DNA of 532 bases. Source: a phage. Below are positions 1 to 532 of the stretch, piece by piece. Each line of letters opens with the position of its first letter. Position 1 is the stretch's first letter. Under the pieces are notes generated by a model, which saw only the letters and a list, made by a program, of their open reading frames with translations, had not been told where the DNA came from and ran no database searches. The translations under genes and the position numbers were made by a program. The stretch lies in sequence record EF516996.1; one strand, given 5' to 3'.

Positions 1-532
1 GCTTCGGTCGTATCCGTGACCTTGAAGCTAAGCACTTCAAGAAAAACGTTGAGGAACAACTCAACAAGCGCGTAGGGCACGTCTACAAGAAAGCATTTAT
101 GCAAGTTGTCGAAGCTGACATGCTCTCTAAGGGTCTACTCGGTAGCGAGGCGTGGTTTTCGTGGCATAAGGAAGACTCTATTCATGTAGGAGTACGCTGC
201 ATCGAAATGCTCATTGAGTCAACCGGAATGGTTAGCTTACACCGCCAAAATGCTGGCGTAGTAGGTCAAGACTCTGAGACTATCGAACTCACACCTGAAT
301 ACGCTGAGGCTATCGCAACCCGTGCAGGTGCGCTGGCTGGCATCTCTCCGATGTTCCAACCTTGCGTAGTTTCTCCTAAGCCGTGGACTGGCATTACTGG
401 TGGTGGCTATTGGGCTAACGGTCGTCGTCCTCTGGCGCTGGTGCGTACTCACAGTAAGAAAGCACTGATGCGCTACGAAGACGTTTACATGCCTGAGGTG
501 TACAAAGCGATTAACATTGCGCAAAACACCGC
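1..532 (+). CDS. 1: Internal fragment of bacteriophage T7-type single-subunit DNA-directed RNA polymerase (T7 gene 1); partial at both ends, codon phase begins at position 3, covers approximately residues 151-326
   Basis: Frame 3 on the + strand is open across the entire window (176 complete codons, positions 3-530), whereas frames 1 and 2 hit stops within the first 75 nt. The translation is near-identical to my recollection of T7 RNA polymerase, including the KR and KK motifs at residues 172/173 and 179/180, the GVVGQD hairpin motif and the TGGGYWANGRRPLALVRTHSKK stretch. Codon usage is phage/E. coli-like. Confidence 0.95.
240..287 (+). other. Coding segment for the promoter-intercalating beta-hairpin of T7 RNA polymerase (approx. 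residues 230-245, HRQNAGVVGQDSETIE; Val237 encoded at 261-263)
   Basis: Residue numbering derived by counting from F151 at position 3. The hairpin assignment comes from established structural knowledge of T7 RNAP promoter complexes, not from anything computable in this window. Confidence 0.6.

Follow-up and report, generated by a model that had tools for sequence, protein, structure and literature searches.

The window, a single stretch of phage DNA of 532 bases, encodes threonine at residue 247 of a T7-type RNA polymerase (RNAP), where the polymerase of bacteriophage T7 has alanine. The question is whether this substitution, just downstream of the hairpin that opens the promoter, affects promoter melting or hairpin positioning, as the initial annotation had proposed, or whether it has another and simpler explanation.

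The window and its differences from T7

The best match to the window among 50,697 phage records was wild-type T7 gene 1, with 98.9% identity over 532/532 bases and no gaps (megablast). The alignment placed the window at positions 3619-4150 of NC_001604, corresponding to nt 449-980 of the gene 1 coding sequence (CDS); the two sequences were colinear and shared 526/532 bases and 172/176 residues. Frame 3 (window 3-530, plus strand) was the only frame open from end to end, and its translation, FGRIRDLEAKHF...IELTPEY...NIAQNT, is a partial CDS of the T7 RNA polymerase gene comprising codons 151-326. These codons cover the H subdomain, the latter half of the promoter-binding domain and the C-linker, and extend into the beginning of the polymerase domain. 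It scored 51.2 bits against the N-terminal domain family RPOL_N (PF14700), above the cutoff of 30.1, and matched PHROG 414 'RNA polymerase' with an E value of 3.5e-46. The T7 RNAP chains in the PDB (1CEZ, 1QLN, 1MSW and others) aligned to it at residues 151-326. The window ends at residue 326, so that the catalytic palm residues D537 and D812 and the specificity loop (739-770) fall outside it. The data establish that the window is a piece of gene 1 of bacteriophage T7 and encodes residues 151-326 of its RNA polymerase.

Two open reading frames were also present on the minus strand inside gene 1, one of 95 aa with a TTG start (237-524) and one of 42 aa (266-394). Both appear to be mechanical antisense frames, the 95-aa frame being without evidence of being a gene.

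Wild-type T7 RNAP (gene 1, NC_001604 3171-5822; PDB 1CEZ/1QLN/1MSW) has the same hairpin at residues 230-245 as the window and differs from it by six transitions, namely the missense changes G198S, S202F, A247T and P274S and two silent changes. All six were G:C>A:T transitions, seen as four G>A and two C>T on the coding strand, and 4/6 were missense. Codon 247 (window 291-293, plus strand) reads ACA (Thr) in the window and GCA (Ala) in the gap-free T7 reference, the result of a G>A change at 291 in a CpG context, and frame 3 around it reads SETIELTPEY. The wild-type sequence that the initial annotation had given for this site, SETIELAPEY, and the residue number 247 both agreed with the reference CDS and with the PDB chains at 151-326. 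The possibility that the reference itself carries ACA at this codon was thus set aside, and the A247T substitution is real. The annotation had treated it as an isolated change, and this part did not hold: it is one of six changes of the same kind.

The intercalating beta-hairpin comprises residues 230-245 and includes Val237 (PMC4176174), and the promoter-binding domain consists of residues 72-150 and 191-267, with the C-linker at 251-296 (PMC11617373). By these published ranges, the placement of residue 247 two residues beyond the hairpin and within the promoter-binding domain was correct. The hairpin itself, HRQNAGVVGQDSETIE (window 240-287, plus strand; coordinates from the CDS offset), was unchanged from T7, and Val237 was intact.

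The remaining five changes also lie on the plus strand. The codon of E187 (111-113) is GAA in place of GAG through G>A at 113, a silent change to a codon common in natural relatives. G198S (144-146, AGC for GGC, G>A at 144) and S202F (156-158, TTT for TCT, C>T at 157) both fall in the promoter-binding domain, only four residues apart, and the latter, which brings in a bulky aromatic residue, is a radical change. The codon of E218 (204-206) is likewise GAA for GAG through G>A at 206, again silent, and GAA occurs at this codon in more distant relatives (L018-L022). P274S (372-374, TCT for CCT, C>T at 372) falls within the C-linker motif QPCVVPPKPW. The C-linker is also the site of P266L, the well-known abortive-cycling mutation.

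Residue 247 among natural polymerases

Column 247 was surveyed in 44 Studiervirinae DNA loci, comprising 22 T7-like IMG/VR loci, ten GenBank Teseptimavirus phages and twelve phages of other Studiervirinae genera. A profile-based locus search gave essentially the same 23 loci as a single-sequence search. Ala was found in 31 of the 44 natural T7-group RNAPs, Thr in 11 and Ser in 2, the frequency of Thr being somewhat inflated because the ten GenBank phages were picked as neighbours of known carriers. Among the Teseptimavirus-level relatives sampled, Thr was present in 8 of about 30. A distant phage RNAP with Ser at this column has also been noted in a published survey (PMC13029058).

Thr247 was encoded by two codons, ACA and ACG, and was spread over at least four genera. 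The phiA1122 group (YpP-Y, YpP-R, YpsP-G, R and Y; Yersinia pestis phage) carries Thr247 with the same ACA codon as the window, whereas Escherichia phage 64795_ec1 encodes it by ACG; further carriers were the Escherichia phages PDP351P2, LNA7, AV103 and MeretOppenheim, Serratia phage UFV01 and Yersinia phage YpYeO9. The local context of these native Thr247 Teseptimavirus enzymes, QDSETIELTPEYAEAI, is the same as that of the window, whereas the phages differ from the window by 24-40 or more scattered, mostly silent differences and none has G198S, S202F or P274S. The nearest natural protein to the window, that of LNA7 (98.3%), is itself a Thr247 carrier. More distant carriers were found in one Berlinvirus, one Helsettvirus and one Pifdecavirus.

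The other three missense positions gave a different picture. Gly198 was conserved in 32/32 close relatives, with G, Q, D, K, E or A in distant genera. Column 202 was Ser in 32/32 close relatives and held only S, T, A or G, never an aromatic residue, in the 44 natural sequences. Pro274 was invariant in 44/44 natural sequences over about 10 genera.

Beside the survey, a homologue search of a large protein database gave five distant hits, all of them fragments, with neither T7 RNAP nor any near relative of it among them. Short, partial sequences of T7-like RNAPs (P0001, P0002 and P0005) were assigned to assemblies of Streptococcus danieliae, Xylella fastidiosa and Klebsiella pneumoniae, and are probably contamination from phage or from expression strains. 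In Salmonella phage PSP2-22 (ON886116.1 23041-24372, 'UNVERIFIED_ORG'), the RNAP CDS is annotated with 1332 nt, compared with about 2652 nt in relatives, which could come from a frameshift, from splitting of the gene or from faulty annotation.

Phage phiA1122 offers a natural Thr247 enzyme that is close to that of T7. Its RNAP differs from the T7 enzyme at 13/883 residues (S228N, A247T, M369T, E484D, R551L, R557L, E565A, E580V, A586V, S606P, S684A, R873Q and E877K), and matches it exactly in the AT-rich loop, the intercalating hairpin and the specificity loop. The T7 promoter consensus TAATACGACTCACTATAGGGAGA was matched 10 times in the phiA1122 genome, over positions 357-36864; five of these matches were exact 23-mers, and 0 are expected by chance. 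The natural co-occurrence of Thr247 with ten T7-consensus promoters in this phage, whose polymerase is not exactly of the T7 background, suggests that a Thr247 enzyme can open and use T7-type promoters adequately for the phage life cycle.

In T7 RNAP, A247T has been described before, recurs in nature and is tolerated as a polymorphism. The column, situated between the hairpin and the next helix, takes Ala, Thr or Ser in the T7 group, and enzymes with Thr would open and use T7-consensus promoters. In the T7 background the substitution is very probably near-neutral; to be counted on the other side, the natural carriers differ from T7 at other residues as well, and the engineered variants described below carry A247T only together with other substitutions.

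Spectrum of the six changes

To place the six changes against natural divergence, the same stretch was compared between T7 and its natural close relatives, in which 30% of differences were GC>AT, 43% AT>GC and 27% transversions. Under this spectrum, six GC>AT changes out of six would arise with P of about 8e-4. Natural divergence was 9.8% nonsynonymous, and four or more missense changes among six would have P of about 1.2e-3. Of GC>AT changes falling at random over this stretch and without selection, 64% would be missense and 5% nonsense, with which the observed 4/6 missense agrees. Three of the six changes (both silent changes and A247T) are states that also occur as natural variants. This could be a hint of natural origin, but such an overlap is not significant, with chance probabilities of about 0.5 for the two silent sites and about 0.36 for at least one of the four missense changes.

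The 5' neighbours of the mutated G were A, T, A, A, C and G (purine in 4/6), and those of the mutated C were C, C, T, T, G and T (n=6). No mutagen motif stood out at the six sites among purine-G, the context of nitrosoguanidine, and TC/CC/WRC, the contexts of deaminases; CpG was present only at window position 291, and CpA (RIP-like) at 1/6. Clustering of the six sites, which span positions 113-372, was not significant (P about 0.10).

When T7 is mutagenised with nitrosoguanidine or hydroxylamine, GC>AT mutations dominate (PMC6042481), and heating of phage particles raises GC>AT transitions (PMC8923235). The mutagenised T7 populations, as far as they are described in PMC6042481 (nitrosoguanidine, Springman et al. 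2010; hydroxylamine, Bull et al. 2013), are dominated by GC>AT like the window, a likeness of spectrum alone. The six changes may carry the signature of a mutagen or of deamination under little purifying selection, and an alkylating agent (nitrosoguanidine, EMS), hydroxylamine, or heat- or enzyme-driven cytosine deamination could each have produced it; six sites are too few for the agent to be told from sequence context. The spectrum makes a mutagenic origin of the changes reasonably likely. The simplest reading would be that a laboratory T7 backbone acquired the six point mutations independently, and overall we consider it probable that the window is a T7 gene 1 fragment with six independent G:C>A:T mutations on an otherwise exact T7 backbone, with A247T among them and near-neutral by itself.

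The changes might instead be artefacts of sequencing or of template damage, such as cytosine deamination or low-coverage reads. Exclusive GC>AT change is also a signature of cytosine deamination in damaged templates, and the changes were tied to no record or publication that we found. Set against this, an error of 1.1% would be high for a consensus sequence, and the window contains no frameshift or stop, although six GC>AT changes would miss a stop about 73% of the time in any case. We regard an artefact as improbable.

A247T in engineered T7 RNA polymerases

The substitution has been reported in two engineered T7 polymerases. Mut7 (F162S/A247T) came from an error-prone-PCR droplet screen for reduced dsRNA and was judged to meet production requirements, whereas Mut17 (A70Q/F162S/K180E), the best shuffled variant, is without A247T (10.1101/2024.05.23.595468). 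Since A247T was dropped from Mut17, F162S is suggested as the effective partner. A247T is also one of the substitutions in PCD9, a thermotolerant PROSS design with activity at 48 C (PMC13384301). PROSS uses natural sequence variation, and the presence of A247T in PCD9 is consistent with the natural survey.

The window shares A247T with both enzymes and is neither of them: wild-type F162 sets it apart from Mut7, and wild-type V214 and T256, in place of V214I and T256K, set it apart from PCD9. No T7 RNAP literature was found that combines two or more of G198S, S202F, A247T and P274S. G198S, S202F and P274S were not found linked to T7 RNAP in the literature, the matches to G198S and P274S concerning unrelated proteins. 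One A247T in the literature was rejected as belonging to the T7 gp4 primase and not to the RNAP.

A T7 RNAP from deliberate engineering or directed evolution, with A247T (alone or along with G198S, S202F and P274S) selected for a property such as lower dsRNA, thermostability or altered initiation, would be in keeping with the recovery of A247T by both the error-prone-PCR screen and PROSS, and with the share of missense changes (4/6), all four of which lie in the N-terminal domain and the C-linker that govern the transition from initiation to elongation (PMC11617373). Neither design nor standard error-prone PCR is expected to leave two silent changes and exclusively GC>AT transitions, however, and the missense fraction equals the unselected expectation, with S202F and P274S at naturally conserved positions. 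The mismatch with Mut7 and PCD9 and the absence of any pairing of the four substitutions in the literature searched point the same way, and deliberate engineering is an unlikely source of the window.

Somewhat less likely still is a functionally important A247T, which, placed at the base of the hairpin, would shift the hairpin or alter promoter melting. The position two residues after the hairpin, in the promoter-binding domain, speaks for such a role, as does a preprint that places A247T at the transition from the hairpin to the J-helix and reports an altered template preference in simulations of the F162S/A247T double mutant (10.1101/2024.05.23.595468). The same preprint finds that the residue makes no template contact, and its best low-dsRNA variant does without the substitution. 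The natural sequences argue further against the effect on promoter melting or hairpin positioning that the initial annotation had raised, with Thr native in 11/44 and Ser in 2/44 relatives and with phiA1122 combining Thr247, an identical hairpin and T7-consensus promoters. The annotation itself had held that Thr being common among close T7 relatives would make this an ordinary polymorphism, and common it was; the proposed functional significance is therefore unsupported.

The four missense changes together might also form a co-selected set that retunes promoter release or the transition from initiation to elongation in the manner of P266L, which would make the window an undescribed functional variant and not mutational debris; we give this little credence. 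If the behaviour of the enzyme has changed, S202F and P274S are likelier than A247T to be responsible, because these positions never vary in this way in nature.

Searches for a natural source

The next nearest natural relative after T7 differed from the window at 24 or more positions. The plasmid collection contained no match to the window, and the matches in complete E. coli genomes were all DE3 copies of the wild-type sequence (megablast). Among phages, no sequence matched the 59 nt around codon 247 at 100%, and a 41-mer carrying A247T and a 37-mer carrying G198S/S202F had 0 exact matches in viral, genome and metagenome contigs.

Recombination was considered as a source of Thr247 and was ruled out: around position 291 no carrier matches the window over more than 29 nt, and 291 is the sole donor marker that they share. 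The natural Thr247 Teseptimavirus haplotypes have the codon state in common with the window, whereas their linked silent polymorphisms are absent from it; over this stretch these loci differ from T7 at 24 or more positions. Import of the two silent sites from a donor was likewise ruled out, as no linked donor markers were present. Over the three shared states, the tracts in common with donors reached at most 39 nt.

An origin in a natural T7-like isolate, or in a recombinant of T7 with Thr247 from a relative, would account for the occurrence of Thr247 (ACA) and of GAA at E187 and E218 in relatives and for the 98.3% protein identity with LNA7, but is very unlikely given 6 nt of difference from T7 against at least 24 nt from any other natural relative, short shared tracts with no linked donor SNPs, a spectrum and missense excess far from natural divergence, G198S, S202F and P274S in 0/32 close relatives, and no exact match in the phage, E. 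coli, plasmid, viral, genome and metagenome collections.

Significance

A247T should not be flagged as a candidate for altered promoter melting, being a recurrent natural substitution that is also published as tolerated. Users of a clone with this sequence should be aware that it is not wild-type T7 RNAP and has six GC>AT changes that together look mutagen-like. It is S202F and P274S, and not A247T, that lie outside natural variation, and these two could impair or alter the enzyme. For biology the finding carries little weight; its practical value lies in provenance and quality control.
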